Source: an uncultured Pseudomonadota bacterium
GTDB taxonomy: Bacteria > Oederibacteriota > Muellerivitia > Muellerivitales > Muellerivitaceae
NCBI GenBank assembly: GCA_963836235.1
Contig: CAWIIP010000004.1
Span: 224,001-288,000, forward strand
DNA length: 64,000 nucleotides
Reading direction: 5' to 3'
The notes beneath the pieces were generated by a model. It did no database searches. It was given only the letters and a program-made list of their open reading frames with translations, and was not told where the DNA came from. Position numbers and translations under genes: made by a program. Of the stretch, positions 238 to 21,991 are shown piece by piece. Position 1 is the stretch's first letter; the number at the start of each line of letters is the position of its first letter.

Positions 238-265
238 AAGAAAAACGAAAGGGGCTCAATAAAGC

Positions 266-666: not shown

Positions 667-697
667 TTATAACAATATCTATAGATATTTCTTATAA
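667..697. promoter_or_regulatory. palindromic operator upstream of XRE gene
   Basis: Perfect palindrome AATATCTATAGATATT (674-689) flanked by TTATAA on both sides, ~30 bp before ATG 726. Confidence 0.5.
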
Positions 698-725
698 TAA
701 CCTCCTCCCACATATCTTGTAAAGC

Positions 726-950: not shown

Positions 951-1088
951 TTGTCCGCGAACGGTCAGTCCTGTCAAAAAGGAGGCTGATTTTAAAAAAC
1001 AACTCTTTTAAATTTCTGCTCTTGCCCAGAAGGTTTGAAAGTTTTATTATTTTATTAAGGAAGGTTTAACCTGTGTAGGCGGCAGATA

Positions 1089-1559: not shown

Positions 1560-1687
1560 TAGTTAGTCCCTCGTCCTCTACAATCCCGGTCTAATTAAGT
1601 TAAATACCCAAAATGTCTTTTGGTTGATTGCGCCGAAAAGGTTAGAATCGTTTGGCGTTTGAAACCTAGAGGGTTGGGGGTTCTTGA

Positions 1688-3307: not shown

Positions 3308-3366
3308 TCGAGATTTAAAACTTAAATTTCCAATTTAGATAAATTAGGAAAAATGGGAGTGTTTTT

Positions 3367-6588: not shown

Positions 6589-6655
6589 TATTAAGATTAT
6601 TCTGAGCTTGACCGAGACTTAATTTGGTAGTTCGGCACCAAATAAATAAATGGTT

Positions 6656-7141
6656 TTATTTTAAAAATTCTTTAGCCAATTCCTTTGCGTTGTAAACCAA
6701 ACAAGGCCATGTCCCTCCATCTTTTGGGGGTATTTGAAAAACCCAAAACATGAGTTTCGCATTATCATCGGGTAAAATAAGTAATCGAAGTTGTTCCTTT
6801 GTAAAACCCCGGACTACATAATTTCTTTTATCTTGTTCTGAACGGGTGGAACGAAAAATTTCTGCATCTGTTTCTCTGAAAAAAATAGGCATTGCCATTT
6901 TGAAAGGCGTTGGTCCCACAAGCAATACATAATAGTTCCCAGTTATTCTCCCCTTGGACAATTCCATCAATCCCCAAAATGGCTGACCTTCCACGTTTTC
7001 ATCAGGTAATAGTTTTTTTATTCGTTCACGAAAATCACTTAAAAATTCCTTTTTTTCTGTTTCCGACAAAACCCTATGGGGTGAAAAATTCCATTTAAAT
7101 TGTTTTGCAAAAAACTTTAGGTATTGCATTAAAGCTTTCAT
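6656..7141 (-). CDS. hypothetical protein, coupled to XRE repressor
   Basis: 161-aa ORF overlapping the stop of the upstream XRE gene by 4 nt. Confidence 0.6.
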   Translation of the reverse strand: MKALMQYLKFFAKQFKWNFSPHRVLSETEKKEFLSDFRERIKKLLPDENVEGQPFWGLMELSKGRITGNYYVLLVGPTPFKMAMPIFFRETDAEIFRSTRSEQDKRNYVVRGFTKEQLRLLILPDDNAKLMFWVFQIPPKDGGTWPCLVYNAKELAKEFLK

Positions 7142-7404: not shown

Positions 7405-7436
7405 TTTTGAATAGTATTTCACGCAAAATACTCTTT

Positions 7437-7576: not shown

Positions 7577-8665
7577 ATGAAAAAGAATTCCGCTATCATT
7601 TTGGGAATATCGCTGGTCGTAATTTCCGCTTTTATTTGCTCAATAGGCTGTAAAAACAGCGGCCCTTCAACCCCTTACGATATTGGATTTACCCCAACCC
7701 CTGTCCGTATTTATGGGCCAGTTAATGCCTTTGTTGAGGATAAAGGGATTGCTGTCCCCAACCTGTTGGTTCAGGCGATACCCCCTTCCGGTGTGACAAT
7801 CTTCAGCCAATCCACCACGGCAAGCGGGATTGCAACCTTTAACCCGCCTTATCTTGAATTGGGGAATTGGACTTTTGTGGTTCCGGCCCAAACCCCGTTC
7901 CCCTATGCCCCTAGCACCATCACCATGCCCGTGTCAGTCGTCAATGAAACGGCCAACTTCAACACGGCGGGGGCTACAATTTATTTGACCCCGACTGTGC
8001 CGGAATCTTTCACTTCAACCAACCCCGGCTCCCCCTATACCTACAGCATGATTTACAGCCAGCCCGGAAATTTGTTCATTCCGGGAAAAATCGCCTTTTC
8101 CGGATTTCCAACAAATTGGAGCGCGTCTTACGGACCAGCGACGATTGGATATGGGAATTCCGACACCGGCTCCGTTACTGTTGTTGGTGTCAATTGTGTG
8201 GACAGGCAACCCAGTTTCGCAGTGACCGCTCTCGATTTGGAACCAACGCCTTATCCCCGCGCCAACAGTTCACCACAGACCATCACCAAAAGTTTCACAT
8301 CGACGGTCACCGTTACTTGGAACACGACTGGGTTGAATTCCGATTTCTGCAACAACGGAACTGCAATTGGAATCGTATATGGAACCCTTACTGTTTCAAC
8401 TTCCAATGCTTGTTCTTACGATGCCGTTGTTTCAGTTTCAATGAACGCGGGGAATTGTTGTTACAGCCAATTCCAGACACCCAATGGAAACGTCTCAGCC
8501 GCGAATTGTGGCGGGGGTGGAGTTAATTTTGGACCGGGGTCCTATAACTGCACTGTCCTGAGTGGTGCCACTTGGGGAGCCCTTAATTGTTCCTTCAACG
8601 GTGTCTCACATACCGTGAACGTTCCGACATCGGGTTCTGTCCAGCTTTTAAGCACAAGTTACTAA
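7577..8665 (+). CDS. Cys/Thr/Ser-rich surface lipoprotein (adhesin-like, Ig-like folds)
   Basis: GGAGG RBS, signal peptide with lipobox-like SIGC, beta-rich composition, paired Cys in C-terminal domain. Confidence 0.7.
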   Translation: MKKNSAIILGISLVVISAFICSIGCKNSGPSTPYDIGFTPTPVRIYGPVNAFVEDKGIAVPNLLVQAIPPSGVTIFSQSTTASGIATFNPPYLELGNWTFVVPAQTPFPYAPSTITMPVSVVNETANFNTAGATIYLTPTVPESFTSTNPGSPYTYSMIYSQPGNLFIPGKIAFSGFPTNWSASYGPATIGYGNSDTGSVTVVGVNCVDRQPSFAVTALDLEPTPYPRANSSPQTITKSFTSTVTVTWNTTGLNSDFCNNGTAIGIVYGTLTVSTSNACSYDAVVSVSMNAGNCCYSQFQTPNGNVSAANCGGGGVNFGPGSYNCTVLSGATWGALNCSFNGVSHTVNVPTSGSVQLLSTSY

Positions 8666-8677
8666 GGGGCCTGGATT

Positions 8678-9433
8678 ATGAAATATCTACCGGCACTTTT
8701 ATTGATTTGTTTGATTTATGGATGCGGAAAAGGCCCTTCTGGACCGACCGGGCCTCAAGGTTCCCCTGGTACGGGTATCCCTTCATTTCAATTGGAATTC
8801 GAGCAAGGGATATTTCCCGACGCCGGATATTCCGGAGTTGACACCCACTGGCTGGATGGAAGCAATCCCAATACAGCGCCGGGTACGGGGGAGATTGAAG
8901 TAGCCACCGGAACAACCACCTCGAATGTGGCTTTGGGGTTAGTGAGGTTCGACCTTTCTTATGGCATTCCATCAAACGCCACAATCACCGGCGCAAGTCT
9001 GGAATTAACAACCGAAACCGGTTCGATCCTTTCAGGCGGGACTTATGTTTTTGGCATCCATCAAGTCATCCAGCCACCTGCCGGGCAGGTGCCTTGGAAC
9101 GACTCAAGTACATGGAATGTTTTGGTAACCCCATATGGTTGGGACGGGGGGACCAGTTCTCCCGTTACGGCGGGGGCCGATTACAACTCGACCCCGATGG
9201 ACGCTGTGACTGTTACCGCCTCGCAGGTCAACGCAACCCAAATTCTCCTAGCTTGGAATATCACGCCTGCCCTTGCCCAGGTTTGGGTGAACAAAGCCAA
9301 TAACAATTACGGAGTTTTGATTTCGCCGGAACCAGAAATAAGCGGGTCGGTTTCAGGCTTTATTTCGTTTTGGGATAACACGGGGAACTCCCAACAAAAA
9401 CCAAAGATGATTGTTTCTTACACCATTCCTTGA
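8678..9433 (+). CDS. lipoprotein with short collagen-like repeat and DNRLRE-like domain
   Basis: IYGC lipobox, GPSGPTGPQGSPG, LVRFDLS..IPSNATITGASLEL, NNYGVLI, KPKMIVSY. Confidence 0.75.
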   Translation: MKYLPALLLICLIYGCGKGPSGPTGPQGSPGTGIPSFQLEFEQGIFPDAGYSGVDTHWLDGSNPNTAPGTGEIEVATGTTTSNVALGLVRFDLSYGIPSNATITGASLELTTETGSILSGGTYVFGIHQVIQPPAGQVPWNDSSTWNVLVTPYGWDGGTSSPVTAGADYNSTPMDAVTVTASQVNATQILLAWNITPALAQVWVNKANNNYGVLISPEPEISGSVSGFISFWDNTGNSQQKPKMIVSYTIP

Positions 9434-9442
9434 GGTGGATAT

Positions 9443-10660
9443 ATGAAAAAGAGAATATCTATTTTTGTGGTCCTGATTTTATTTCATTCGGTGATGGCTT
9501 ATGCCAAGACAAAACCGAAAACCACCCCTACCCCAAGCCCAACTTCAACCCCGGAACCTAAGCCCCGGTGGGTCCCGCCACCCTATGTTGGCAACGACTC
9601 CAAAGTCCTCAATGCGACTGTTGCGGCCCATTACGAGAGTGCCGCTTCCGGGAACCTTGGCTATTCCTTATTCGACCTTTCTGGTATCCGAAAACTCGAC
9701 GAGAACGACGTTTCGGCCCAAGGGACCGTCCGGTTCATGAAATATTTTTCCAGTTCGGATGATGTAGGGGAACTCCAATTGAGGGAAGCCAATCTTTCCC
9801 TTTCCGAGCCCTGGATTGAAGTAAGGTTGGGCCGGATGGATTTGTCCGATATCGCAAGTACCACCCACTTTTTTGGGCGTTATCCCTTGATGGGTTTGAG
9901 GCGATTGGACGGGATCAAGGTTTATATCCCTTTCAAGTTTTTCTTCGGAGTTGAGGATTACAAGAGCGTTTCAAGCCCGCCGACATCGTTAAGCTTTTTT
10001 TATTTTCCAACCCTTCTTTCGGCCCAGGACGCTGTCATTGACGGTTCCCAAGGTTATTTCATGGGACAGGCCCGCATGAAACTCAATTTCGGGGATATTC
10101 GGACAGTCCTTCTTTTCAACATGGGGGCCAGCTCGTCGGATGATTTTGAATACTCCTCCATGAGTGGGAATCCTGCCTACTCCATTTGTGGGGAGGCCAA
10201 CTTCAGCAGGGATTACACCCTTTACTTCGAATACGGGGTTCAGGATTCCGCCAGGTCGGGCGATACGAGCGCATTCACATTTGGGGGAAAAGCCGAGCAT
10301 CTATTTACCTTCGACTTCCTCTCCCTCGACCAAGTCATTCTGGAAGTCCAAGTTCCGATTGCCAACAATCCCAATAATCCATTTACAGGCGGGAACGGCA
10401 TTGATCCGGCATCCGCAGTACTCCCTCAGACCGCTTTGTATGGGAAGGCGCGGATTCGAATTCGGTCTATTTTCATTGATTTCAACATCACTGATTCTTT
10501 GGGCGATTTCACCTTCGCTCGGTTGAATCCCAACAACATCAACACACCTTTACCCATGCCGGTGGGTGGGGGGAATGAGACGGACGGCCTGGAAATCCCG
10601 CTTCTCTCATCCGGTTACAACAACTACGCCTTCAGCGTGGATACGGGGGTTCAGTTTTGA
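9443..10660 (+). CDS. secreted protein, probable outer-membrane beta-barrel
   Basis: Signal peptide, PT linker, LREANL..EVRLGR porin-like motif, amphipathic strands, terminal Phe (GVQF). Confidence 0.6.
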   Translation: MKKRISIFVVLILFHSVMAYAKTKPKTTPTPSPTSTPEPKPRWVPPPYVGNDSKVLNATVAAHYESAASGNLGYSLFDLSGIRKLDENDVSAQGTVRFMKYFSSSDDVGELQLREANLSLSEPWIEVRLGRMDLSDIASTTHFFGRYPLMGLRRLDGIKVYIPFKFFFGVEDYKSVSSPPTSLSFFYFPTLLSAQDAVIDGSQGYFMGQARMKLNFGDIRTVLLFNMGASSSDDFEYSSMSGNPAYSICGEANFSRDYTLYFEYGVQDSARSGDTSAFTFGGKAEHLFTFDFLSLDQVILEVQVPIANNPNNPFTGGNGIDPASAVLPQTALYGKARIRIRSIFIDFNITDSLGDFTFARLNPNNINTPLPMPVGGGNETDGLEIPLLSSGYNNYAFSVDTGVQF

Positions 10661-11163
10661 AAGGGGCATTTCTTTTCATCATTTTTTGGTTTGTTTCCAG
10701 GGCCTTGGCCCAGGACGGCAACCCATTCACGGACGTCCGGGACAGGGACCAATGGTCTATAGAACAGGTTATGGAGCATAAAGCCCCCGTGGATTCATGG
10801 GATGGAAGTTCAAATGAAGGAGGCACCCACCGGGGAAAAAGACCTGCTCCAATTGCTCCCCCAACCGCGACTCCTTTTCAAACTAAATCTTACAACTTCC
10901 AAACCGAAACAGACGAGGCCAAGGTCGGCGCATCCATTACGGATAACGGTTCCAATTTCACCATAGATATTTCCTGTGACCAAACGATCCAGGGTTGGCT
11001 TTTGAAATTCCAATCAACCAAGCAGGTTTTCCTGAAAGGGGGGGCGCCCACGGATAACCCTTACAAATGCCGGATCGCGGTGGACCGGCCCTATATCAGG
11101 GACTTTGGACTGACCGTTTATGTCACCCAAGACAGTGATCCGGCTTTTATCCAACTCTTTTAG
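10657..11163 (+). CDS. secreted hypothetical protein
   Basis: Signal peptide (ALA-Q); coupled to neighbours. Confidence 0.6.
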   Translation: MKGAFLFIIFWFVSRALAQDGNPFTDVRDRDQWSIEQVMEHKAPVDSWDGSSNEGGTHRGKRPAPIAPPTATPFQTKSYNFQTETDEAKVGASITDNGSNFTIDISCDQTIQGWLLKFQSTKQVFLKGGAPTDNPYKCRIAVDRPYIRDFGLTVYVTQDSDPAFIQLF

Positions 11164-11172
11164 GCGGTAAAG

Positions 11173-11622
11173 ATGGAAAACCAAATACAGAAGTCGGAAA
11201 ACTTAAAGACTTTTCATCCTTCATTTTATCAATGTACGCCCGTGCTTTTTCTCCCCTTTCCGTTGTTTCTTTTTGTCCTCTTGGGAGTCCGGCTTTATTA
11301 CATCCTAATGCTGTTTTGGTTCATGGAAATGTCGTTTCTTTTATTTATCTGGGTTTACCTCACAACCACTCTCTACGTCATCAGGCCCGACCGAATTGAA
11401 ATCAAAACCGGGATATTCGTTAAGCGGTCAAGAACCGTCCCTTTCGACCAAATCATAAATATCACCTGCAAACAGAGCATTGCCCAAAGGCTTTTTAGGA
11501 TTGGGGACATTTTCATAGACACTCCCGGAGGGAAACCTTTTGAGTTGGCTTTGGCGGGGGTCGAGAGACATGAAGAGATGGCGGAATTTCTATTTGCCTT
11601 GAAAAAAAGAGGCAATCCATGA
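11173..11622 (+). CDS. membrane protein with bacterial PH domain (bPH_2/YdbS-like)
   Basis: Two TM helices, then Y.I.PDRIEIKTGIF.K.SRTVPFDQI.NIT.KQSI.QRLFRIGDI. Confidence 0.8.
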   Translation: MENQIQKSENLKTFHPSFYQCTPVLFLPFPLFLFVLLGVRLYYILMLFWFMEMSFLLFIWVYLTTTLYVIRPDRIEIKTGIFVKRSRTVPFDQIINITCKQSIAQRLFRIGDIFIDTPGGKPFELALAGVERHEEMAEFLFALKKRGNP

Positions 11623-12485
11623 AGGTCATACTTCTTTGTTTTTTGATGTTTAGTGGGGCTTGCCAACTGGTTTTGGCCGACACAACTTCCGACGATCCTA
11701 AAACGGAAGAGGCGTTGAGGAACAATGTCATCGACTTTAGGGATTGGTTGATGAAACAACTTTCCCAATTTCCCAAAGCCGACCCGCATAAAACAGGGAT
11801 GATCCTAAGAAATTATGCATCTCTTCCAAGAAAGAACCGGGTCATCAATGCCAACCAATACAACCAAGCGGCCAAATCAGATTGGGTGAAAGGCCAAGTT
11901 TTGCAGGGCCTTTCCACCTTGAGCCAACAGCTTGCCAATACCGCAGGGACGGCTTTAGCTCCTCAAAGCGCAAGCCAGCTTCAACAATACTCGACTCAAT
12001 TGGGTCAAAGTAACGATCCCCAATTCCAACAGGTTGGAACTCTTTACTCCCAGGAAGCCCAGGCCTTACAAGCAGGGAACACCCAGGGGGCCAACCAAGC
12101 GGCCAGCCAGGTCGCCGCCGTTCCCCAGCCCAATGTCCCGCCAGGATACCAACCCACCCAAAACGAAACATCACTGGCCGCGACCCTTAACCAGATCACC
12201 GGAAGCCTTATCGGTGCGGTCGTTGAGGCAGTTATCGCCATTTATGGCGGACCGGTTGCGGCCTCCCTGTTTTCACCGGCAATTATGTCGATTTTTGGGG
12301 GTGGGCAGAATACCGGAAGTGCCCTAGCAACAGCGCCGAACCCCGCAACGGCGCTTAACACGGGGGGAGTCAATGTCGCACAAACGGGAGGGGGAGCGTT
12401 GATGCAACAGTTGGGTAGTGTGAATGTCAAACCGCTTCAACCCCAAAATTCCGCAAATGCCGGTGCCGCACCACCGGCCCAATAA
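11619..12485 (+). CDS. secreted Gln/Ala-rich protein, possible VirB5/TrbJ-like minor pilin
   Basis: Signal peptide, Q-rich helical core, position just before pilin and VirB6. Confidence 0.45.
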   Translation: MKVILLCFLMFSGACQLVLADTTSDDPKTEEALRNNVIDFRDWLMKQLSQFPKADPHKTGMILRNYASLPRKNRVINANQYNQAAKSDWVKGQVLQGLSTLSQQLANTAGTALAPQSASQLQQYSTQLGQSNDPQFQQVGTLYSQEAQALQAGNTQGANQAASQVAAVPQPNVPPGYQPTQNETSLAATLNQITGSLIGAVVEAVIAIYGGPVAASLFSPAIMSIFGGGQNTGSALATAPNPATALNTGGVNVAQTGGGALMQQLGSVNVKPLQPQNSANAGAAPPAQ

Positions 12486-12508
12486 ATATCAATGATCGGA
12501 GAAATTAA

Positions 12509-12871
12509 ATGAAAAAAAGAAACTTTATCAATTCTATAAAGCAGGTAGGGATGACGGGCTATCTCCTCATTCTTGCGGATAAGGCCAATGCACAAGCGAT
12601 TACCAGTATGCCGGAACTTTCCCCGATAAAACTGATGATCCTTTTTGTACTGGATGCTTATGGGGTTTGGAAACTATTGCAATGCGTTAAGAACGTCTTG
12701 GATCACCTCGCCGATTCAAGTAAGGGTGATCCGGCGGCTAAAGATCGGATTTGGGGAAGCGTTCTGGCTTTCATCGGGATACTTATGGTGGGGGTAATGG
12801 TCAATGTTTTAATTCTCAAAGCGGGAGAATTTGGGGCGAGGCCGGTTAGTTCTGTCCTGTCCGGGAATTGA
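12509..12871 (+). CDS. VirB2/TrbC-like pilin
   Basis: Long signal ending ANA-Q, two hydrophobic helices separated by a KGDPAAKDR loop, 120 aa. Confidence 0.6.
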   Translation: MKKRNFINSIKQVGMTGYLLILADKANAQAITSMPELSPIKLMILFVLDAYGVWKLLQCVKNVLDHLADSSKGDPAAKDRIWGSVLAFIGILMVGVMVNVLILKAGEFGARPVSSVLSGN

Positions 12872-12878
12872 TCCATTC

Positions 12879-14792
12879 ATGAAAAGAGTTCTTCAACTCC
12901 CACCCCTAATTTGTTTTTGCCTTTTGACCTCGACTTCCTGGGGGGTCTCGGTGTTATCGACCGATAGCGGCCCCACTTCACAGACAATCGAGCAGGGAGT
13001 TTCGGCAGGGATTTTCGATTCCATGACGCAACACGCGGGGGATTGGGTCGCCAATGGGATGAACAAAATCGGGAATTGGGCTTTGCAAACTTTATTTGCG
13101 ATTTACGATAAATATATTGGAACTTTCCTGATTATGATCCCCGATTTGGCATCTCCCCAAACCTATACCGCATTAACCAATGGCTCCCTTAATACATCCG
13201 CCAATGCAGTCCAAGTCGTTCTAAATATTCTAAAAATTACCAGTGGGACAGGACTTTTCATCCTGATAGTAGGGTTTGTTATAGATACGGGCCAAAGGTC
13301 ATCCGGTTTGTGGGATAGGTTTGTCGATGGATCAACCGTGATTGGGTTCGTTGCGGCTTTCCTTTTTCTTTTCGCTTGGCCGACCGTTCATTCCTACCTG
13401 ACCAATGGGATAACGGCGATGGGTTATTACATTTATAACCAGAATACTTTGCGCACTTCCGGCGTTTTGGAGGGCATCCAGAATATTGACCTAAATTCTG
13501 ATGGTGTAGCGACTTCCGTTCAATTGGCCCAATTTGATTTCCGGGGAAATTTCATCACGATTCAGGGAATCATTTGGAATCTTATTTATCTCATTTCCAT
13601 TTCCTTGGTCGTCTTGGGTTTCTACAACTGTTATTCGGCGGTATCCGCGGGGGATTCCCAGAAAGGCAGTTATAAATTTTTTCAGGCCGTTGCCGGAATC
13701 ATCCTGATTCTCGGTGTTCCCACAATCATCCATGTTTTTATCGACAAAGGAGCCGACGCTTTGGGGACCCAACAAGCCATTCCGGGGCAATCCCTTACTC
13801 CTTTTTCCATGCAAGGATTGGTTCAGGATAACGGCGTTCAGTATCCCCAACAACAGGGGCAAGCCCCGCCCAACATTGGAACAGCAGGCAATAGTACCCA
13901 AGTTCCTGGAACAAGCCGTTTAGCGATATTTTCTGCTGGCCTTGTGAAATGCGGAGTTTCTATTTGGGGACTCATCGTCTGCTTTTCGGTGGTCTTCGCA
14001 AAGTTTTTCCAAATTTTGAATCTTTGGGTCATGTTCATCCTCGGTCCCGTTTTCATCGGGTGCCTTGGGCACCCGGCCACTTCCTCTATTTTTTGGGGCG
14101 CGGCCCGGTACTTTTTAAAACTCATCCTTTATTCCGTAATTTGGGCAATCACCCTTGTCGGCCTCTATTTGATTCCAAACATCAATTGGGGTGTGGAGAC
14201 AATTGGTGTGAACAGTCTCTTGACGGCAGTCGCCGTACTTGCCGGTCTTCAAATGATCGCCAACGTCCAAGAATTCGCATCCCTTTTCACAACCTTTTCA
14301 GGCGCAAACCTGAGAGGCGAAGGTTACAAGGAATCCTACCGGGATACCAAGGCAGCCCTTGGGTCGGCCAATTCATTACGCCTGGGAACATTTGGAGCCC
14401 TTCAAGGCGCATCGGGTGAGACAAGTCAAGGGTTGGCCGCCGCCACGGGTGCGGCATTCGGGTCAATTATTCCCGGTGTGGGGACGGCTAGTGGTGCCCT
14501 GGCAGGGCAAAAGACGATGAAAGGTTTTAACTCTTTAGCCAAATTGGGGTCTATGGGTGGCAGGGGAAAGGGTGAGGAAGAATCGGACAATCCGATTTCA
14601 AAAGCCCTTAAAAAGTTTTCCGGCAATGTAATTTCCAAGAATCTTTCTAAGGAAGACCAACAAAACAAGTCCTACTCGGTGGATGAAAGAAAAAAACGCC
14701 AATTGGTCAGTGAATACGCAAAAAAACTCCAAGGCAAGAAACCAAATCCGAATTCAGGGTATCAGGGACCAAAAGGGAAGAGGAGTGTCTAA
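12879..14792 (+). CDS. VirB6/TrbL-like polytopic membrane protein
   Basis: Multiple TM helices, LWVMFILGPVFIGC...TSSIFWG VirB6-like motif, Gly/Ala-rich then basic C-tail; likely start ATG 12879. Confidence 0.7.
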   Translation: MKRVLQLPPLICFCLLTSTSWGVSVLSTDSGPTSQTIEQGVSAGIFDSMTQHAGDWVANGMNKIGNWALQTLFAIYDKYIGTFLIMIPDLASPQTYTALTNGSLNTSANAVQVVLNILKITSGTGLFILIVGFVIDTGQRSSGLWDRFVDGSTVIGFVAAFLFLFAWPTVHSYLTNGITAMGYYIYNQNTLRTSGVLEGIQNIDLNSDGVATSVQLAQFDFRGNFITIQGIIWNLIYLISISLVVLGFYNCYSAVSAGDSQKGSYKFFQAVAGIILILGVPTIIHVFIDKGADALGTQQAIPGQSLTPFSMQGLVQDNGVQYPQQQGQAPPNIGTAGNSTQVPGTSRLAIFSAGLVKCGVSIWGLIVCFSVVFAKFFQILNLWVMFILGPVFIGCLGHPATSSIFWGAARYFLKLILYSVIWAITLVGLYLIPNINWGVETIGVNSLLTAVAVLAGLQMIANVQEFASLFTTFSGANLRGEGYKESYRDTKAALGSANSLRLGTFGALQGASGETSQGLAAATGAAFGSIIPGVGTASGALAGQKTMKGFNSLAKLGSMGGRGKGEEESDNPISKALKKFSGNVISKNLSKEDQQNKSYSVDERKKRQLVSEYAKKLQGKKPNPNSGYQGPKGKRSV

Positions 14793-15083
14793 ATGGCTAT
14801 TCCTTTAGAAAAAGAATCCAAAATGTGGGGTCTCTTTTATACCTCCGATTTTAACAAATTGATGTTTGCCATTATCGGCAACGCCCTTGCCTTCATGGTG
14901 TTTTTCATTTTTTGGGGCCTTGAAGGCGCATTAGTCCTTTTCTTCGCAACCATGATCCTCGTGACCACTTACTACGTCATGAAGAGTTTTTGGCCCGAAA
15001 AATACTTTGAAAACATCATCCGTTACCACAACGAACCAAAACAATATTTTCCCGGCGGGGAAGCAAGCGAGTTTGAGAAATGA
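14793..15083 (+). CDS. VirB3/PrgI-like membrane protein
   Basis: 96 aa, two TM helices, ...PKQYF tail, directly before VirB4. Confidence 0.6.
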   Translation: MAIPLEKESKMWGLFYTSDFNKLMFAIIGNALAFMVFFIFWGLEGALVLFFATMILVTTYYVMKSFWPEKYFENIIRYHNEPKQYFPGGEASEFEK

Positions 15084-17647
15084 GAAATTTCTTCATACCA
15101 AAAAAGAAGCCAGATTCAGTAGCGGGACTACTCAGGATAAAAGCAGTCGGACCGGGTTACATCGTTTTAAGGAATCCTGAGCAATATGTCTCAATATTTA
15201 GGATTGCGGGAGGGTTGAATCCTTGGATGGAAGACCCGGATGTTTTGGGGGAGAAAATCCGAAAGCTTGATTCAATCCTATCGGATTTGAGAAGAGGCGA
15301 GGAAGTCCAATTCCTGACTAAAAGAATTAAGGCTGATGCTGAATCCGCGATTGAAAAATTTGACGAAAGGATTCACGACAATGCCCCAGAGGTTTTCAGG
15401 AACCAATACCCAGAGTTTTTTCGGAATTGGCTAAGACAGTTTTATGACCAACAGAAAATATGTCATTACCGGTCCTATGTCCTATTTACCATCCCGCCAC
15501 CCCGATCTTCAAAACCCACCAAGGATTTTTTGAAGATTGAGGAAGTGCTTCGAAGGGGGAAATCCTGGGCATCCCAACTCAATATGGTCGGAATGGATGT
15601 TCAGGAACCAACGGAAGAGGAGATTTACTCACTTCTTTTTGAGGAATTATCCCAACAACCTTTTTATGGGAATCCCCAAAGATTCAAGAATGCCGTTGGA
15701 GTTTCTGGGGGGGACTATGGTTTACAAACATTAAGAGAAATGTTGACCACCTATCCGTGGGATTTTAGGGAACCAACTTACTTCAAGGTTGGGGATGTCT
15801 TTGGCAAAACCCTTTATGTGACTGAATTCCCATCTTTCAACGAAGAAAACCTTTTCTTCCAGGAGCTTTACGAACAAACCGATGATTTCAAAATCTCTCT
15901 TTTTGTGAAGGGAGTAGACATCTTCCGGGCTCAATCAATCGTGGAAAAACAAATTCAAGCCGACCAAGGGGCTATTTGGAAAAGAAAGAACGTGATGAAT
16001 TTCGATGCGAAAGCGGCTTTGGATTATCGCCAAAGCGTTCTCGAGCTTGTATCGGAAAGAAGAACATCCCTCGCAAAGTTTTCCCTCTACGTGACCCTCT
16101 TTTCCGACAATTCCAAAAAACTTATGACCAGTTTCGAGAGTTTGACCAGGATGTTCAAGAACGTCCATCCCTTATCAGGTTACGGCGAACAGAAGAGGCT
16201 TTTTCTTTCGACTATCCCGCAGGCAACCGATGAAGCTGGACATGAACACCTTCAAGCCACGGCTGTCATCGCAAACGCGATCCCCTGTCTTTATGACCCC
16301 ATTGCAGATACGGACGGTGTCCCAATCGGGAAAACACTTTCCGGCGAAATGGTTCAATTAAATTTGTGGGGGAGGGAAACGGAAAACTGGAACGTCCTGG
16401 TAGTTGGGTCTTCCGGCACGGGAAAGTCTTTCAGCATCAACCAACTGCTTATAAAAAACCTGCCCATGAACCCCTACGTCATGATTATCGATAAATCCCA
16501 ATCTTATAAAACCCTGTGCAGGCTGGCTGGTGGTCGCTATTTGAATTATGACTTGGATAGCTCCCATCACTTGAACATCTTCGACTATCCCCTTGATGAG
16601 GTTAAGGCGCTAGACGGTGAAATCGATCCCGATCATATCGCCAACATCATCATGTATTTGGGAGTAGTCCTTGCGAATATCAAGGATAACCGGATTGAGG
16701 AAGCCGAGGAGTTGGACAAAGCCCTTCTCCAAGAAGCCGTAAAACAAACCTATAAGAACACCATCGGGGAGAACAGAGTTCCTCTCTTGAGGGATTTAAG
16801 GGAAACACTTTTCAAAATGGCCGATGACAAGAAAGTACCGGCCCAATTCCAATACATTTGCCGGAAACAATCGGAAGTTTTGAAACTCTTCACCGGAAAG
16901 GGAATGTACGCCAACCTAACCGACCGGGAATCGACCGTCAACGCGGACAATTCATTCATCGTTTTCGATACATCCGGGATAAGTGATAACGACAAAAAGG
17001 CCGTAGGATTGGCGGTCTTTGTTATCTCCAATTACTGCCTTAATAAGGCAAAGCAGAACAAAGAATTAAACCGCCTTTCCCAATTGGCGATGGATGAATG
17101 CTGGTATTTAGCTCAGTATCCCGCAGGCCTAGCCTTCCTATTAAGAATCGCAAAGACCGCCCGGCATTTACGGCTCCAACCCATTTTCGCCACCCAAGAA
17201 ATTGGAGAGTTTTTCGGGGTGAAGGGTGTTGAAGCAATCCTCAAGAACACTTCCACAAAAATACTCTTAAAGCTGGTCGGGGACGACATCGACCACGCAA
17301 AAGGACTCCTTCAGTTAAATCCAACCCAAGTTGAGAAGGTGATGAACCTCCATTTGGTTAAGGGTGTCTATTCCCAAGCCTTGATCCACCAAACTCTTCG
17401 GCAGGGAATCGTGAACATTTTTCCCGATGAATTGGCTTATCACATCGCAACGACTTATGGCCCGGAAGCGGCAGTCCGTGACCATTACCTTGAAACCTAT
17501 TCGAGCGAGGAAGACCCATTAACGACTTTGGGAGCAATCAGCAAATGGATTGAGGACAAGGAAAACAACTGTGTTTTGAAACCAATCGTTAGGGAACAGG
17601 ACAAATTGCCCATAGTCAAAAAGGCGGAAGAGGTAGTGATGAAATGA
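15080..17647 (+). CDS. virB4: VirB4/TraC-family T4SS ATPase
   Basis: Walker A GSSGTGKS, IIDK..SY..LC..AGG, Walker B MDECW, ARH...ATQ; 855 aa. Confidence 0.9.
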   Translation: MRNFFIPKKKPDSVAGLLRIKAVGPGYIVLRNPEQYVSIFRIAGGLNPWMEDPDVLGEKIRKLDSILSDLRRGEEVQFLTKRIKADAESAIEKFDERIHDNAPEVFRNQYPEFFRNWLRQFYDQQKICHYRSYVLFTIPPPRSSKPTKDFLKIEEVLRRGKSWASQLNMVGMDVQEPTEEEIYSLLFEELSQQPFYGNPQRFKNAVGVSGGDYGLQTLREMLTTYPWDFREPTYFKVGDVFGKTLYVTEFPSFNEENLFFQELYEQTDDFKISLFVKGVDIFRAQSIVEKQIQADQGAIWKRKNVMNFDAKAALDYRQSVLELVSERRTSLAKFSLYVTLFSDNSKKLMTSFESLTRMFKNVHPLSGYGEQKRLFLSTIPQATDEAGHEHLQATAVIANAIPCLYDPIADTDGVPIGKTLSGEMVQLNLWGRETENWNVLVVGSSGTGKSFSINQLLIKNLPMNPYVMIIDKSQSYKTLCRLAGGRYLNYDLDSSHHLNIFDYPLDEVKALDGEIDPDHIANIIMYLGVVLANIKDNRIEEAEELDKALLQEAVKQTYKNTIGENRVPLLRDLRETLFKMADDKKVPAQFQYICRKQSEVLKLFTGKGMYANLTDRESTVNADNSFIVFDTSGISDNDKKAVGLAVFVISNYCLNKAKQNKELNRLSQLAMDECWYLAQYPAGLAFLLRIAKTARHLRLQPIFATQEIGEFFGVKGVEAILKNTSTKILLKLVGDDIDHAKGLLQLNPTQVEKVMNLHLVKGVYSQALIHQTLRQGIVNIFPDELAYHIATTYGPEAAVRDHYLETYSSEEDPLTTLGAISKWIEDKENNCVLKPIVREQDKLPIVKKAEEVVMK

Positions 17648-18243
17648 CGGAACCGAACGAAAAAGATGATTTGAAATTCTTGGAAAAGTTGGATGAGGAA
17701 CCGAAGAAATCTGGTTACACCCCCGCGATTCTTGTCGCTATTGCGTTTGTTGGGCTTGGAATCGCGACGACTCTTTTATGGGGAAGAACGAAGATTTTGA
17801 ATTCCCCTAAAACCGACGTATCGAACACAACGGATCAACAAGCGGTAAGCCAGGAGGCTCAATATTCCGACATCATAAACTTCGCCGAAAAATTCACAAT
17901 CATGGTTTTCAACGTGAACTATACCGATATCAACCACCAGGAAGACAAAGTGGCAAACCTTATGAGCGACAACATGATGTCTTACTACCAGGATGCTTTT
18001 CTTGACCCTAAATGGATTGCCTTCATTACAGACAATAAGGCCTATGTGACCTACCAGGGAATTGAACGGTCAACGGTCGAGAACACCGATGGAACCCACT
18101 ATTGGGTCCGGGTGATTGGTAAATGCCTCTACAACTCCGATACCAGAGGGTTTGGCTCCCAGATTGAATTGCCGTTTCACCTGGTAGTTGTCGTCAAGAA
18201 GGACAACGGAAAACTAATCATTACGGATTTTCAAAGGTTATAG
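17644..18243 (+). CDS. VirB8/TcpC-like (NTF2-like) bitopic protein
   Basis: Single TM helix then FAEKFT..FNVNY..., NTF2-like C-terminal strand GKLIITDF. Confidence 0.6.
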   Translation: MTEPNEKDDLKFLEKLDEEPKKSGYTPAILVAIAFVGLGIATTLLWGRTKILNSPKTDVSNTTDQQAVSQEAQYSDIINFAEKFTIMVFNVNYTDINHQEDKVANLMSDNMMSYYQDAFLDPKWIAFITDNKAYVTYQGIERSTVENTDGTHYWVRVIGKCLYNSDTRGFGSQIELPFHLVVVVKKDNGKLIITDFQRL

Positions 18244-18887
18244 CGATGGAAGATCTTATTTTACGGATTAATCCTCAAATTGCTCGGCGCTACCTGCAAG
18301 CGGCCAATTTTTACTTTGTGACCGATAGTTATCTTGATGCTTTGAAAAAATTTGAAGGCCTTTTGGTTGGACACGAAAAGGAAGGGTATTCCGAAACGCC
18401 TTGGATATATGCCAAGTTCAAAAAGCCTAACCTCGTTTTAAAAACCATAAATCGAATCAACGAATTCTTTCCAACCTTCACAAAAAGAATTGCCTTTGTC
18501 GCTAGAGCCCAATTTTTACTTGGGATTTACCTGTTTTATGTCAAAGACGACCACGGAAAGTTAATCATCACGGATTTTAAAAGGCTTTGATCGATGGAAG
18601 ATAACGTATTGCAGATAAACCCGGAATTAGCCCGAAGATGCCTTCAATCTGCCCATCTATATATGGAAACAAACCGTTACCGTGAGGCCTTGAAGCTTTT
18701 TGATGACGTTATTGGCAAATACCAACCCCAAAACATTGAAGCCCATCTGGAATCGGCAAAGATTTATGCCAAGTTCAAAAAGCCTAATTCCATATTAAAG
18801 GTAATAACCCGTCTCCATAATTTCGCTGAAAAAACTCCCGAAAGTCTTGTCTTGCTTGGTAGAGCCCAATTTTTTCTTGAGCTTTAT
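18193..18887 (+). repeat. diverged tandem duplication (~345-bp unit: ~18193-18530 and ~18540-18887)
   Basis: Both copies contain the virB8-like 3' end, stop, CGATGGAAGAT and the TPR start; identical 23-mer TATGCCAAGTTCAAAAAGCCTAA in both. Confidence 0.85.
18246..18590 (+). CDS. chimeric ORF: TPR N-terminus of the DGC plus C-terminal strand of the VirB8-like protein
   Basis: MEDLILRINPQIARR ~ MEDNVLQINPELARR; ends VKDDHGKLIITDFKRL ~ VKKDNGKLIITDFQRL. Confidence 0.7.
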   Translation: MEDLILRINPQIARRYLQAANFYFVTDSYLDALKKFEGLLVGHEKEGYSETPWIYAKFKKPNLVLKTINRINEFFPTFTKRIAFVARAQFLLGIYLFYVKDDHGKLIITDFKRL

Positions 18888-20066
18888 AGCGATTGCGAAG
18901 AAACGCTTAAAGAAATCTTTTTCAAGACGAGAGACTTTCCCGAAGCAGTCGCCTTGGAAGGGGAATTGTGTATCCATACCGGGAAATACGAAGCCGCGAT
19001 CGAAAAGTTTGAAAGTTTAAGCACTAGATATCCCAAGAATTACAACTATCTAGCCCTTTTGGCCCTTGCCCAATATGTAGGCGGACGATACCACCGAACA
19101 ATTACCAATTGCACCACGATCATGAAAACCGGGTTTGCCGATCCCAAAGTCACGAAATTGTACGAAATGGCGAGAAAAAAGAAACGCCGCGAGGCTTTGG
19201 GAAAGTTGAGGAAGGTTAAACCCCTCAAGTGGCTTTTTGCCCAATTGTTTGACCCGTTTTTGGAAAGCGAAATGCGGGCTGAATCTCAAAGCCAAACAAC
19301 ACATGAAGATCTTGTTCAAGAAACATTGGTGGACCATAGAACGGGCCTTTTTAATGACCGGGCCGCTACACAACAAATACCCGCCCTTGCCGCCCGGAGG
19401 AAGTCCCAATTCTTCTTGACCATGGCCGATATCGACTTTTTCAAATCTTTCAACGACGTCCATTACAACCATCAGGTCGGAAACGCTGTTTTAAAAGCCC
19501 TCGCAAAGGCGGGACAGAAAATATTCTCAAAAAACAATATTTGGCGATATGGCGGGGAAGAGATTGTTTGGGCCTTGGACACATCCGAAGACCAAGCAAT
19601 CGAAAAAGCGGAACAATTCAGGAAGTATTGCGAAGAAAGCGTGGTTGAAGAAGCAAATGAGATTATCAAGAAAGAAGGAATTAAACATTTTGCGGACGGC
19701 CTAGATCATAAAAAAGATGAGGTCTTCTATATCTACTATCCCGTAACCATCAGCCAAGCCATTGTTCAATGGGGTGAAGACGGGACAAACCTGGAAAGCG
19801 TACTAACGGCGGCGGATAAGGGCCTCTATACCGCAAAGGAAAGCGGTCGAAATGCGGTGGTCTATAGGGGAGCCCTAAAGAGTAGCGGGAAACGCCCTAT
19901 TAAGTACACTCCTGAAATCCTCGGAATTCTCCATGAACAATCCATCAAAAAAGGTTCGCCCCATTGGTGGGCTCACATTAAAGGTCTTTCCGAGAAGGCA
20001 CGGGAAGAAGCCCTTGAATACGCAAGGAACACTTTAAGCAACAAGGAGGTACCCTCCAAAAAATAA
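18594..20066 (+). CDS. TPR-repeat diguanylate cyclase (GGEEI)
   Basis: TPRs, DHRTGLFN, DIDFFKSFND..HQVGN, RYGGEEI, ADKGLYTAKESGRN. Confidence 0.9.
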   Translation: MEDNVLQINPELARRCLQSAHLYMETNRYREALKLFDDVIGKYQPQNIEAHLESAKIYAKFKKPNSILKVITRLHNFAEKTPESLVLLGRAQFFLELYSDCEETLKEIFFKTRDFPEAVALEGELCIHTGKYEAAIEKFESLSTRYPKNYNYLALLALAQYVGGRYHRTITNCTTIMKTGFADPKVTKLYEMARKKKRREALGKLRKVKPLKWLFAQLFDPFLESEMRAESQSQTTHEDLVQETLVDHRTGLFNDRAATQQIPALAARRKSQFFLTMADIDFFKSFNDVHYNHQVGNAVLKALAKAGQKIFSKNNIWRYGGEEIVWALDTSEDQAIEKAEQFRKYCEESVVEEANEIIKKEGIKHFADGLDHKKDEVFYIYYPVTISQAIVQWGEDGTNLESVLTAADKGLYTAKESGRNAVVYRGALKSSGKRPIKYTPEILGILHEQSIKKGSPHWWAHIKGLSEKAREEALEYARNTLSNKEVPSKK

Positions 20067-20105
20067 TTTATGGCGTTGGTCTAAAACAAAAAAAGGAGAA
20101 AGAAC

Positions 20106-20408
20106 ATGGGCTTAAAAGTCAGGATTACCAGGATGTATCCGTATGACGGGGAACACACGAAGGCTTTTGTGGGGGCCAAGGTCCTAATATCCGGGCGTGT
20201 CTTTGGTTACAACGAATTGACACTTGTGAAAAAGAAGGAAGGCAATGGTTTGTTTCTTGGTCTTCCCTCAAGACCCGGAAGACAGGAGGGGGAATACCAC
20301 GACATTTGTTATATGGACCCGAACACTCGGAAGGAAATTGAAAAAATCGCCATTTTGGAATACGAAAAAAAGGTAAAGGAAAACAAAACCTCGGAAAAAC
20401 AGGATTAA
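20106..20408 (+). CDS. spoVG: SpoVG-family nucleic-acid-binding protein
   Basis: KAFV...GLFLGLPSR..EGEYHDICY...RKEIE...EY. Confidence 0.75.
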   Translation: MGLKVRITRMYPYDGEHTKAFVGAKVLISGRVFGYNELTLVKKKEGNGLFLGLPSRPGRQEGEYHDICYMDPNTRKEIEKIAILEYEKKVKENKTSEKQD

Positions 20409-20466
20409 GTGAGAAGCAATTCTTTCCATTTCAAAAACCGTTTTAAGGGTCTGGCGGAGGGAAATC

Positions 20467-20742
20467 ATGTCCGAACGTAGAAGTGGAGACAGGCGGAATA
20501 AGATTCAAAATCGCCTTTTGAGCGACAAACAGGTCGCTGAATTGGCAGGGGTTCCGGTCAATACCGTTCGTAAGTGGAGACAGATTGGAACCCTACCCTT
20601 TGTCAAAGTCGGTCGTCATCCGAGGGTTTGGATGTCGGAATTCGAAAAAACTTTCCATCAGCCAAAACCAAATGGCCCTTGGGAACAAATCCCTGATGAT
20701 GGTAAAATGCCAGGTGCTGGGAACATTAGGAGGAAGTTATGA
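20467..20742 (+). CDS. excisionase-like HTH_17 protein
   Basis: LLSDKQVAELAGVPVNTVRKWRQIGTLPFVKVGR; overlaps the integrase start. Confidence 0.8.
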   Translation: MSERRSGDRRNKIQNRLLSDKQVAELAGVPVNTVRKWRQIGTLPFVKVGRHPRVWMSEFEKTFHQPKPNGPWEQIPDDGKMPGAGNIRRKL

Positions 20743-21848
20743 GCAAGCCTAATGTTCATGGATTGCCTTCGCATCTTCGTAAGGATGCGGAGGGTTATTT
20801 TTTGGACTACTTTATCCAGGAAGGCGGTTTGAAAAAAAGGAAAAGAGTCCGGTTGGGCCACGTACCTTTGGCCCAGGCCAAAAAGATCCTCGCTCAAAAC
20901 ATGACGGATATGTTGGAGCAAAGGTTTTTGGAGGTTGACCGGAAAAAGGTGACTTTTAACGAAGCCGCCGATTCCTTCTTGGCTTATTCCCAGGGCAGGA
21001 AAAAGAGCCACCGAAACGACATTCCAATTGTCGCGAGGTTCAAGGCTTTTTTTGGAAACCGGTACCTGGAAAGTTTGACCCTGGACCATTTGGAGTCGTA
21101 CATTCTCCGAAGGCAAAGGGAAGGCCAAGTGAACCACAAGGGGAAACCCTTGTCGGGAACCACCTTGAACAAGGAAATCGCCTGCCTCAAGACGATTATC
21201 CATAGGGCTATTCGAAACGGCCAAATAGACCGTGATCCGATAGTCGGTATTAAAAAGTTCAAGGAAATTCCGCGGGATAGGACTCTTTCGCCAGAGGAGT
21301 GTCAGGGACTTCTCGTGGCTTGTTCCAACCACCTGCGGCCCATCGTCCAATTGGGTTATTCAACTGGAATGAGGTGCGGGGAAATACTAGGTTTGAGGTG
21401 GGAGCAAGTGGACTTTAAGAATAAAGTGATATTCTTAGAGGCTTTGGACACAAAGACCCAGGAAAAGAGGGAAGTACCGCTGAGCGAGGCTTTAGTAAGG
21501 CTTCTTCAGAATGTTCCCAAGACTCTTGGTAGTCCTTATGTGTTCACCTATAGAGGGAAGCGAATGGTCAGCGTGAAGACAGCTTTCAAAATAGCGTGCC
21601 GAAGGGCTGGGGTTGAGAATTTCAGGTTCCATGACCTCAGGCATTGTTCGGTCACGAATATGAGGAAAGCGGGGGTTAGTGACAACGTCACCATGTCGAT
21701 TCACGGTCATAAGTCAGGCGCAGTATTTAGGAGATATGACCGGGTAGACAGGGAAGACCGCCACAAGGCCCTTGGAAAAGTTGAAAGTTTGATTGACACG
21801 CATATGACACTCGTGGAAAATCAGTCTCCCCTTGAAGGGAGTAAGTAA
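20739..21848 (+). CDS. tyrosine recombinase/integrase
   Basis: TGMRCGE, K(T), FHDLRH, GHKS, RY catalytic residues. Confidence 0.95.
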   Translation: MSKPNVHGLPSHLRKDAEGYFLDYFIQEGGLKKRKRVRLGHVPLAQAKKILAQNMTDMLEQRFLEVDRKKVTFNEAADSFLAYSQGRKKSHRNDIPIVARFKAFFGNRYLESLTLDHLESYILRRQREGQVNHKGKPLSGTTLNKEIACLKTIIHRAIRNGQIDRDPIVGIKKFKEIPRDRTLSPEECQGLLVACSNHLRPIVQLGYSTGMRCGEILGLRWEQVDFKNKVIFLEALDTKTQEKREVPLSEALVRLLQNVPKTLGSPYVFTYRGKRMVSVKTAFKIACRRAGVENFRFHDLRHCSVTNMRKAGVSDNVTMSIHGHKSGAVFRRYDRVDREDRHKALGKVESLIDTHMTLVENQSPLEGSK

Positions 21849-21879
21849 TGCAAAACCCTTTTGTGGAAAGGGTTTTGCA
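21849..21879 (+). terminator. hairpin after integrase
   Basis: TGCAAAACCCTTT-N5-AAAGGGTTTTGCA perfect inverted repeat. Confidence 0.6.
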
Positions 21880-21905
21880 AGATGGAACGTAGATTGTAAA
21901 AAGTT

Positions 21906-21961
21906 GAGCTAGCCGCCTTGTAAGCGGCAGGTCACCGGTCCGATTCCGGTCGCCAGCTCCA
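21906..21961 (+). mobile_element. att site: 3' fragment of tRNA-Thr(TGT) marking the right end of the integrative element
   Basis: Anticodon arm GCCGC-CTTGTAA-GCGGC, T arm ACCGG-TCCGATT-CCGGT, 3' CGCCAGCTCCA; the complementary 5' acceptor strand (GCTGGCG) is absent. Confidence 0.85.
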
Positions 21962-21991
21962 TTTTTCAAATTCATGTTGTTAATAGAAATT

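Follow-up and report, generated by a model that had tools for sequence, protein, structure and literature searches.

How does DNA leave a cell that has an outer membrane when the transfer operon encodes a Gram-positive-style set of inner-membrane proteins and no recognisable outer-membrane core? This question is raised by a locus in the 64,000-nt stretch analysed here (the window, C4:224001-288000, C4 being contig CAWIIP010000004.1), which comes from a metagenome-assembled genome (MAG) of an uncultured soil bacterium, 3.97 Mb in five contigs and 99.4% complete. The locus forms the right third, the transfer-gene end, of a 48.7-kb element that we call ICE B. ICE B is probably an integrative and conjugative element (ICE) with a distinct mating-pair formation (MPF) module that lacks VirB9 and VirB10. 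The ICE is a known kind of element; what is new here is that a gene for a predicted 16-strand porin-fold barrel and a gene for a TPR-GGDEF protein accompany the gene for the VirB4 ATPase. We describe the module as a phylum-restricted MPF variant, in which a monoderm-style inner-membrane set occurs in a diderm, VirB7, VirB9, VirB10 and VirB11 are not detectable, and a porin and a likely diguanylate cyclase are conserved.

The region 7577-21848 is an unbroken series of open reading frames (ORFs), all on the + strand. The operon consists of 13 intact, closely packed genes and one chimeric duplicate ORF, followed by a SpoVG-like gene, xis, int and a tRNA-Thr fragment. From the first lipoprotein gene through the GGDEF gene the intergenic gaps are -4 to +23 nt; gaps of 39 and 58 nt precede the SpoVG-like gene and xis, and xis and int overlap by 4 nt. 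The features are as follows.

7138-7491, - strand: Cro/C1-type helix-turn-helix (HTH) regulator, divergent from the operon (Pfam HTH_3, 4.4e-9), at the same position in related loci
7577..8665, + strand: 362-aa putative lipoprotein, Ser/Thr-rich, first gene of the operon; N-terminal hydrophobic segment ending ...SIGC
8678..9433, + strand: 251-aa putative lipoprotein (NCBIfam DNRLRE_dom, 8.3e-15); leader ending ...IYGC
9443..10660, + strand: 405-aa predicted outer-membrane porin-fold beta-barrel; Pro/Thr-rich N-terminal tail, C-terminal Phe
10657..11163, + strand: 168-aa secreted protein with a signal-like leader; start overlaps the porin gene end by 4 nt; no family
11173..11622, + strand: 149-aa membrane protein (Pfam bPH_2, bacterial PH domain, 5e-17); one hydrophobic segment, score at threshold
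11619..12485, + strand: 288-aa secreted Gln/Ala-rich protein; C-terminal part hydrophobic and Gly-rich; presumably the protein annotated earlier as possibly VirB5
12509..12871, + strand: 120-aa VirB2-like pilin candidate; leader ending ...ANAQA, hydrophobic segments 42-60 and 85-103
12879..14792, + strand: VirB6/TrbL-like polytopic membrane protein (Pfam TrbL, 3e-7); hydrophilic C-terminal tail
14793..15083, + strand: 96-aa VirB3/PrgI-like two-helix hairpin; hydrophobic segments 23-41 and 46-64; 4-nt overlap with virB4
15080..17647, + strand: VirB4-family ATPase, 855 aa (Pfam P-loop_TraG, 2.9e-25; AAA_10, 1.7e-10)
17644..18243, + strand: predicted VirB8-fold bitopic protein, 199 aa; one transmembrane (TM) segment, 28-46; assigned by fold match
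18246..18590, + strand: 114-aa chimeric duplicate ORF, recognised by comparing the translations of three proteins
18594..20066, + strand: TPR-GGDEF protein, 490 aa, likely diguanylate cyclase (Pfam GGDEF, 5.2e-19, and TPR)
20106..20408, + strand: SpoVG-like protein, 100 aa (Pfam SpoVG, 2.7e-6; 27.9 bits, just below the cut-off of 29.6); conserved in related loci
20467..20742, + strand: excisionase-type HTH_17 protein, Xis (Pfam HTH_17, 3.1e-8)
20739..21848, + strand: tyrosine integrase (Pfam Phage_integrase, 2.5e-28)
21912-21961, + strand: attR, the 50-nt 3´ part of tRNA-Thr(UGU), anticodon stem to CCA-side end

A first-pass annotation, made from the sequence, had described a complete, tightly coupled operon between a repressor and xis-int-att, and the ORF spacing, the HTH_3, HTH_17 and integrase matches and the 50-nt tRNA-Thr copy bear this out. 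A scan of 7000-22200 for sigma-70 promoters and terminators was uninformative, since it found fewer sites than in shuffled sequence.

The first-pass annotation had also listed VirB2-, VirB6-, VirB3-, VirB4- and VirB8-like genes. Two of these calls stand on Pfam matches: VirB4, which in addition matched the VirB4 C-terminal domain structure 4AG5 in PDB (2.9e-20), and the VirB6/TrbL-like protein, which scored 30.8 bits against a cut-off of 25.9 and has eight hydrophobic segments. The Pfam VirB8 model gave no match to the 199-aa protein, so that its likeness to VirB8 is one of fold and not of sequence. In an AlphaFold2 (AF2) model, its C-terminal domain (predicted local distance difference test, pLDDT, 88-96) was matched by Foldseek to IcmL-like 5cnl (3.8e-5), PrgL of pCF10 (7aed, 9.7e-5), DotI (3wz4), TrwG and CagV, as well as to A. 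tumefaciens VirB8 (2cc3). The model is that of a VirB8-fold protein with an N-terminal TM segment and an NTF2-like periplasmic domain. The 96-aa and 120-aa proteins, for which no family model was found at E<=5, fit VirB3-like and VirB2-like roles by size, position and hydrophobic-segment pattern. For the 288-aa Gln-rich protein no relative was found in PDB (profile search), Pfam or Atlas. The order VirB6, VirB3-like, VirB4, VirB8-fold is the Gram-positive order.

The host genome encodes Omp85/BamA (199 bits), and the host is therefore diderm, as had been assumed. VirB9 (CagX, PF03524) and VirB10 (TrbI, PF03743) gave no match at E<=1 in the whole genome, which extends the earlier claim of their absence well beyond the window, and no match at E<=5 among the operon proteins. 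This absence is at the level of homology, the structure-level search lacking four unassigned operon proteins (362, 251, 168 and 288 aa). Within 7577-21961 there was no match to the VirB9, VirB10, VirB11, transglycosylase, VirD4 or relaxase families, and among the scanned ORFs of ICE B we found no VirB11-type ATPase, lytic transglycosylase or other cell-wall hydrolase. The proposal that the system has no outer-membrane part thus holds only by homology. However, the operon opens with two putative lipoproteins, a predicted porin-fold barrel and a secreted protein.

Is VirB4 a member of a known MPF class? All of the NCBIfam VirB4 models scored well under their cut-offs (bits/cut-off: TraC-F-type 186/567, Mycoplasma-ICE VirB4 170/590, CD1110 132.7/325, VirB4_CagE 101/643, Bacteroides TraG 54/262 and ICE-G TraC, TIGR03744, 46/about 520), and the closest plasmid relatives were F-type TraC proteins at 23% identity. 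A 12-member VirB4 profile searched against 1.84 billion representatives returned 11 proteins above 600 bits, two at 458-497 bits and a continuum below ~400. Trees were built with references for MPF_T (R388), MPF_F (pMAR2, IncC), MPF_B (Tenacibaculum), MPF_C (Nostoc pCC7120alpha, whose VirB4 was located with TIGR00929 after an AAA_10 search there had found nothing), MPF_FA (pCW3), MPF_I (R64) and MPF_FATA (pCF10, a Lactococcus plasmid and a haloarchaeal plasmid). In the mixture-model tree (38 rows, 730 columns) the family forms one clade (99/99), which joins an unlabelled clade (78/79), and both join the FATA side (87/82); a quick tree of 66 rows again gave the FATA grouping, with support of 95. 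The clade lies inside none of the reference classes R388, pMAR2, IncC, Tenacibaculum, Nostoc, R64 and pCW3 and outside the clade of the three FATA references, in trees that have long branches and an arbitrary root and hold no MPF_G, actinobacterial or Tenericutes FATA references, MPF_G being compared by NCBIfam TIGR03744 only. The VirB4 phylogeny that the first-pass annotation had suggested as a check places the family beside MPF_FATA and inside none of the classes represented by the T, F, B, C, FA and I references. Metagenome scans for the outermost family member (P0157) and for the unlabelled sister clade found nothing, and P0164 and P0172 had only 20-27% identity matches to plasmids of mixed phyla by tblastn.

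As had been suspected, the left part of the element lies outside the window: ICE B starts 26 kb to the left. The 3´ part of tRNA-Thr(UGU) is present in three copies, at C4:131.8, 197.2 and 245.9 kb. The intact gene is at C4:131762-131837, while ARAGORN found no whole tRNA inside the window; attR (C4:245912-245961) exactly matches the final 50 nt of that gene (C4:131788-131837), and the last 40 nt are repeated at C4:197218-197257. A single 114-kb island bounded by the intact tRNA gene was considered and rejected, given this internal 40-nt att copy and the duplicated backbones, and we therefore distinguish two elements in tandem behind tRNA-Thr(UGU), ICE A (C4:131838-197257, 65.4 kb) and ICE B (C4:197258-245961, 48.7 kb). 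GC content is 37-50% over the islands compared to 52-58% in the chromosome to the right. ICE A carries the ICE B backbone, with 83% identity for its type IV coupling protein (T4CP), 57% for a 270-aa protein encoded next to it, 80% for ArdC and 62-96% for the operon genes, and also has the GGDEF, SpoVG-like, xis and int genes. Each ICE has one VirB4 gene, and these are the only two in the genome. The left operon genes are closest between the two (lipoprotein 94%, porin 96%) and the right ones less so (VirB8-like 62%). Since the left genes are far more alike, recent recombination between the two copies is suggested by the sequences.

The absence of a coupling protein and a relaxase holds for the window only, since the element as a whole has a T4CP and a relaxase candidate. 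The first gene past the left att, 26 kb left of the window, encodes a VirD4-type T4CP of 614 aa (C4:197527-199371) with two N-terminal hydrophobic segments and Pfam matches above cut-off to TraG-D_C (4.6e-12, 46.4 bits) and TrwB_AAD_bind (8.8e-12, 45 bits). The gene directly after it encodes the 270-aa protein, the sole relaxase candidate on the element. Its single family signal was to the NCBIfam MobC family replication-relaxation protein (E 1.8e-4, 20.9 bits, cut-off 200). We found 77 homologs and aligned 37 sequences, the query and the ICE A copy included; 14 of the 37 matched the NCBIfam MobC model at E<=0.01, four matched Pfam Replic_Relax (best 7.9e-6), and no other family recurred. Invariant in all 37 are H104, D105, R167-T168-P169-D170 and E187, residues that are compatible with a PD-(D/E)XK-type site. 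MOB_C relaxases, as described in a 2025 nomenclature review, are PD-(D/E)XK-type enzymes that occur in ICEs and mobilisable elements (PMC12857230). In pTEF1, which is typed as MOB_C, an annotated 261-aa replication-relaxation gene lies ~0.9 kb after the T4CP gene. The whole genome gave no Pfam match to Relaxase (MOB_P/Q), TrwC (MOB_F), Rep_trans (MOB_T), Mob_Pre (MOB_V) or TraI_2 (MOB_H) and no direct match to Replic_Relax, and the 270-aa protein had no tblastn match among plasmids. On balance, we lean towards a relaxase function for this putative MOB_C-like protein. With a T4CP and a MOB_C-like protein on the same element, we therefore regard ICE B as a conjugative element and not as an uptake or adhesion machine. 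Of the findings that the first-pass annotation had named as speaking against an undescribed system, the T4CP and a MOB_C-like candidate were thus encountered, while virB9/10 genes were not detected and VirB4 was nested in none of the reference classes sampled.

The VirB4 family was present in 21 of 99 genomes of candidate phylum FCPU426 (14 of the 60 high-quality ones), in three tiers of identity, 58-93%, 33-41% and 26-31%. In 15 close loci from other MAGs (L006-L020, 50-95% protein identity) the gene order from repressor to int was kept wherever the contig was long enough. The synteny of homologous loci, another check proposed earlier, therefore argues that the operon is not a chance string of ORFs. 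The 362-aa lipoprotein, for which no family was found at E<=5, is conserved in the close loci and weakly in L022. In seven distant loci searched with phmmer, VirB6-like, VirB3-like and VirB8-like genes were each found in four, as were homologs of the 288-aa protein; one distant locus, L028, begins inside the operon, so that its upstream genes could not be judged. Four genomes (G051, G052, G054 and G070) have six to nine VirB4 matches each, fragments of broken genes counted, with two identity tiers co-resident. Much of the mobilome of this bacterial family consists of such elements. L019, from a MAG labelled 'uncultured proteobacterium', shares int, xis, the SpoVG-like gene and the 114-aa ORF with the window at 99-100% identity, but its larger genes are in pieces. 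We rejected spread to another phylum as an explanation, the near-identity together with the frameshifts suggesting that L019 is this element, or one very near to it, in a noisy assembly.

The only conserved candidate for an outer-membrane part is the 405-aa protein. Its AF2 model has 16 strands (pLDDT 80.6; predicted template modelling score, pTM, 0.77), and the top Foldseek matches were general porins (OmpT 6ehf at 7.6e-10, Omp32, OmpM1 and OmpF; E 1e-9 to 1e-7). Atlas neighbours include porin families, and 17 of the 18 family members examined end in Phe. The protein is thus modelled as a 16-strand barrel of the general-porin type. The family was found in 31 of the 99 phylum genomes, namely 20 of 21 VirB4-positive and 11 of 78 VirB4-negative ones, counts in which related genomes are non-independent observations. 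Since 68 of the 99 genomes are without it, this is not the housekeeping porin of the phylum. When the place tables were compared by hand, a porin match lay 4-8 kb from VirB4 on the same contig in 33 of 43 VirB4 places outside genome G000. Eight of the remaining ten places are at contig edges or on short contigs, and two (G043:C30 and G070:C81) lack a nearby porin. Five of the seven distant VirB4 loci have a porin; very few related loci with VirB4 lack one, even where VirB4 identity falls to 26%, and the porin tree follows the VirB4 tiers. The linkage between porin and VirB4 is old and strong.

The second conserved companion is the TPR-GGDEF gene, which lies directly after the VirB8-like gene in the close loci (behind the short duplicate ORF in ICE B, L006 and L019) and was found in six of the seven distant loci. 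The motif here is RYGGEEI, with Ile in place of Phe as the last residue, and RxGG(D/E)E(F/I/L) was seen in seven of eight homologs checked. The association of this gene with the transfer operon is real, and the sequence makes the protein likely to be a diguanylate cyclase. The link to cyclic di-GMP (c-di-GMP) signalling proposed earlier is therefore supported as far as a conserved operon member goes, with the role of c-di-GMP itself an inference. The N-terminus of the neighbouring 114-aa ORF resembles the TPR-GGDEF protein (40% identity to that of ICE A by blastp) and its last 11 residues resemble the end of the VirB8-like protein; by this comparison the ORF is the scar of a short tandem duplication that spanned the gene junction. 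It stands as a separate ORF also in L006 and L019 and not in most other loci.

Several observations weigh against the reading of ICE B as a conjugative element with its own, distinct MPF module and a porin linked to it. The 270-aa protein itself has no Pfam Replic_Relax match and all of the NCBIfam scores are far under the 200-bit cut-off; when its family was aligned by hhalign with the replication-relaxation protein of pTEF1, the match was insignificant (E 0.089, probability 0.64%); a PDB profile search with the family returned nothing; and the family was not found in six VirB4-positive genomes, exactly those of the 26-31% VirB4 tier. Because only three FATA references were included, a position as sister to FATA and one deep inside a broad FATA are inseparable. 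The data are MAG sequence throughout, with nothing that shows transfer or excision. The porin family, moreover, is not exclusive to the elements, being carried by the eleven VirB4-negative genomes, and the VirB4 operon at G043:C30 (locus L023) lacks a porin on a long contig. Finally, a paralogous module with no VirB4 is found in the chromosome at C2:1664857-1670468, beside nuoL/M/N (complex I) and an IS30-like transposase. It comprises genes for a porin, for a 168-aa-like protein with fused TPR/BamD-like repeats and for a protein resembling the DNRLRE lipoprotein; 366-aa and 380-aa ORFs in it match no operon protein and no Pfam family.

These last observations raise the possibility that the ICE carries the porin-lipoprotein module as accessory cargo, with a role in surface exclusion, in recognising or adhering to recipients, or in taking up nutrients, the outer membrane being crossed by another route. 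The chromosomal module, the porins of VirB4-negative genomes, the porin-less L023 operon and the fold itself, which is that of ordinary diffusion porins, would all be consistent with such cargo. However, the porin gene is translationally coupled inside the operon and stays within 4-8 kb of virB4 even at 26% VirB4 identity; its tree follows the VirB4 tiers, and the chromosomal copy branches among the ICE-linked porins, where it groups weakly (84/85) with a tier-2 ICE copy; the family is missing from 68 of 99 genomes; and no other outer-membrane candidate is conserved. We consider accessory cargo a serious though minority possibility. That the porin is a structural part of the transfer machine, an outer-membrane conduit, is an idea that we put forward tentatively and hold at somewhat less than even confidence.

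Could the family instead be in decay, its outer-membrane core lost and its members no longer self-transmissible, persisting vertically or mobilised by other systems? The absence of VirB7, VirB9, VirB10, VirB11 and a cell-wall hydrolase, the chimeric duplicate ORF and the stops or frameshifts seen in some related loci would fit. Yet the operon genes are all intact here and in ICE A, the full order is kept in L006-L020 and the reduced set over three tiers of divergence, copies occupy several places in genomes, related T4CP-relaxase-int elements sit at four other tRNA genes, and most of the broken copies come from noisy assemblies (G054, L019). We regard decay as unlikely.

Least likely of all is a non-conjugative machine for DNA uptake, release or adhesion (cf. 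Ced/Ted and Patescibacteria) that merely resides on the island, a reading to which the weak relaxase assignment and the adjacency of the VirB4 clade to MPF_FATA, where, according to PMC12102498, the mostly relaxase-less Patescibacteria systems nest, lend something, but which must contend with the T4CP, MOB_C-like, ArdC, xis, int and att features of both the element and its tandem paralog, with up to nine VirB4 matches (fragments counted) in one related genome and with the T4CP-MobC pair of the distant locus L028, which lies 6-9 kb from virB4 and whose MobC member is homologous to the 270-aa protein. Of the undescribed transfer, uptake or adhesion machine proposed earlier, then, a distinct MPF variant stands, and uptake and adhesion are made unlikely by the T4CP, ArdC, UmuDC, att, xis and int.

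The sequence analysis establishes the gene content, the borders of the element, the modelled folds of the barrel and the VirB8-like protein, the placement of VirB4 and the conserved linkage. For the conjugative element with its own MPF variant, we propose, going beyond these results, the following sequence of events. Relief of the divergent HTH repressor would allow Xis and Int to excise the element at its tRNA-derived att repeats. The 270-aa MOB_C-like nuclease, whose gene lies beside that of the T4CP at the far left end, would process the origin of transfer (oriT), and the two-TM VirD4-type T4CP would pass the DNA to an MPF_FATA-like inner-membrane translocon of VirB4, VirB6-like, VirB3-like and VirB8-fold proteins, the small VirB2-like protein being a possible pilin. 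The outer membrane might then be crossed or engaged through the porin barrel, the two lipoproteins, the secreted protein and the Gln-rich secreted protein, and the TPR-GGDEF enzyme would probably tie transfer to c-di-GMP-dependent surface behaviour. Taken to its fullest extent, this would make the family a ninth MPF class, restricted to one phylum, a monoderm-type type IV secretion system (T4SS) with a T4CP in a diderm, in which porin and lipoproteins form a gate that replaces VirB7/9/10 next to a MOB_C-type nuclease and a dedicated diguanylate cyclase, a combination that we put forward as speculative and doubtful as a whole.

The remainder of ICE B holds further backbone and cargo genes. GC content is 37-40% across window positions 1..7137, where the following were seen.

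1089-1559: 156-aa conserved gene of the ICE B backbone, 50% identity to the ICE A copy
1688-3307: HNH protein (Pfam), ICE B cargo
3367-6588: 1073-aa N6-methyltransferase/restriction-type gene (Pfam), ICE B cargo
6656-7141, - strand: 161-aa ORF

The HNH and methyltransferase/restriction-type cargo (1688-6588) has a GC content of 37-38%. Left of the window, ICE B encodes, by Pfam, SRAP, a JAB/ThiF pair, CoiA_N-like, UmuD/UmuC-like, ArdC and SMC-like ATPase proteins; it also has a TPR protein and an addiction-module antidote-type gene (Pfam dnstrm_HI1420), whose adjoining small ORF has no family match.

Four smaller elements, 8.7-37 kb in length, occupy other tRNA genes of this genome; each ends in MobC-like, xis and int genes and is bounded by tRNA-derived repeats.

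C2:1162415-1186838: ~24 kb, at tRNA-Ser
C5:236069-273522: 37 kb, at tRNA-Arg
C2:1355092-1375080: 20 kb, at tRNA-Ser
C2:500995-509751: 8.7 kb, at tRNA-Asp

Two of the four have a full T4CP gene, one a truncated gene and one none. VirB4 is absent from all four, so that they are probably mobilised with the help of the ICE machinery. The integrase and MOB_C-like genes of the two ICEs and the four small elements are related.

What does this element family mean for the T4SS field? In the prevailing view, as given in two papers, all diderm conjugative T4SSs have VirB9/VirB10-type cores, MPF_C and MPF_B included, and few new MPF classes are expected from uncultivated clades (PMC4027160, PMC3548315); according to the 2025 review, every structurally analysed system has a full set of core components (PMC12857230). 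In terms of detectable homology, the ICE family is a counter-example to this view. It is common and multi-copy in FCPU426, and its sole conserved outer-membrane candidate is the porin. If the porin is part of the machine, it would be a second solution to crossing the outer membrane and would bear on how T4SSs move between monoderm and diderm envelopes. The family also gives a means of following gene flow in an uncultured phylum of soil and peat, one genome of which carries two ICEs and four small tRNA-linked elements. A title-level literature search found no publication on conjugation or T4SSs in FCPU426, although the supplementary tables of PMC12102498 and PMC4027160 may hold relatives.

Among known systems, MPF_C of Cyanobacteria and MPF_B of Bacteroidota resemble this family in having a phylum-confined VirB4 clade and many class-specific proteins of unknown function. 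Their VirB4 proteins (Nostoc and Tenacibaculum) branch apart from this clade, however, and both have VirB9-/VirB10-like components by profile comparison (PMC4027160), none of which are detectable here; Guglielmini et al. report homologs of VirB9/VirB10 in MPF_C and, for MPF_B, proteins related to core components (PMC4027160, PMC3548315). In the MOB_C modules (pAD1/pTEF1 TraX; CloDF13 MobB-MobC) the T4CP gene is followed by one for a replication-relaxation protein of ~260-270 aa, a position that the candidate 270-aa protein shares, its likeness to them being only remote. CloDF13 mobB and mobC are adjacent genes; in the sequence record they are unannotated and seemingly broken, and pTEF1 was used as the MOB_C reference instead.

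The T4SSs of Patescibacteria offer another parallel, with a lineage-specific, FATA-related VirB4 clade in an uncultured phylum and VirB2-like, VirB3 and VirB6 genes near virB4. There, however, the clade is nested in FATA, the hosts are thought to be without an outer membrane and most clusters lack a relaxase (PMC12102498), whereas the present element resides in a diderm host and carries a T4CP and a relaxase candidate. MPF_FATA itself (pCF10 Prg/Pcf, pIP501/pGO1 Tra/Trs and archaeal plasmids) shares the order VirB6-like, VirB3/PrgI-like, VirB4, VirB8-fold and the absence of VirB7/9/10/11, the VirB8 domain of PrgL ranks high among the fold matches and its VirB4 branches beside this clade; the pCF10 annotation has a PrgI-family gene, a CD1110-family VirB4, a lysozyme gene and further genes. 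In contrast to MPF_FATA, the system described here has no detected PrgK/TrsG-type hydrolase, its VirB4 falls outside the three-reference FATA clade, it resides in a host with an outer membrane, and its operon carries a porin, two lipoproteins, a bPH protein and a GGDEF enzyme.

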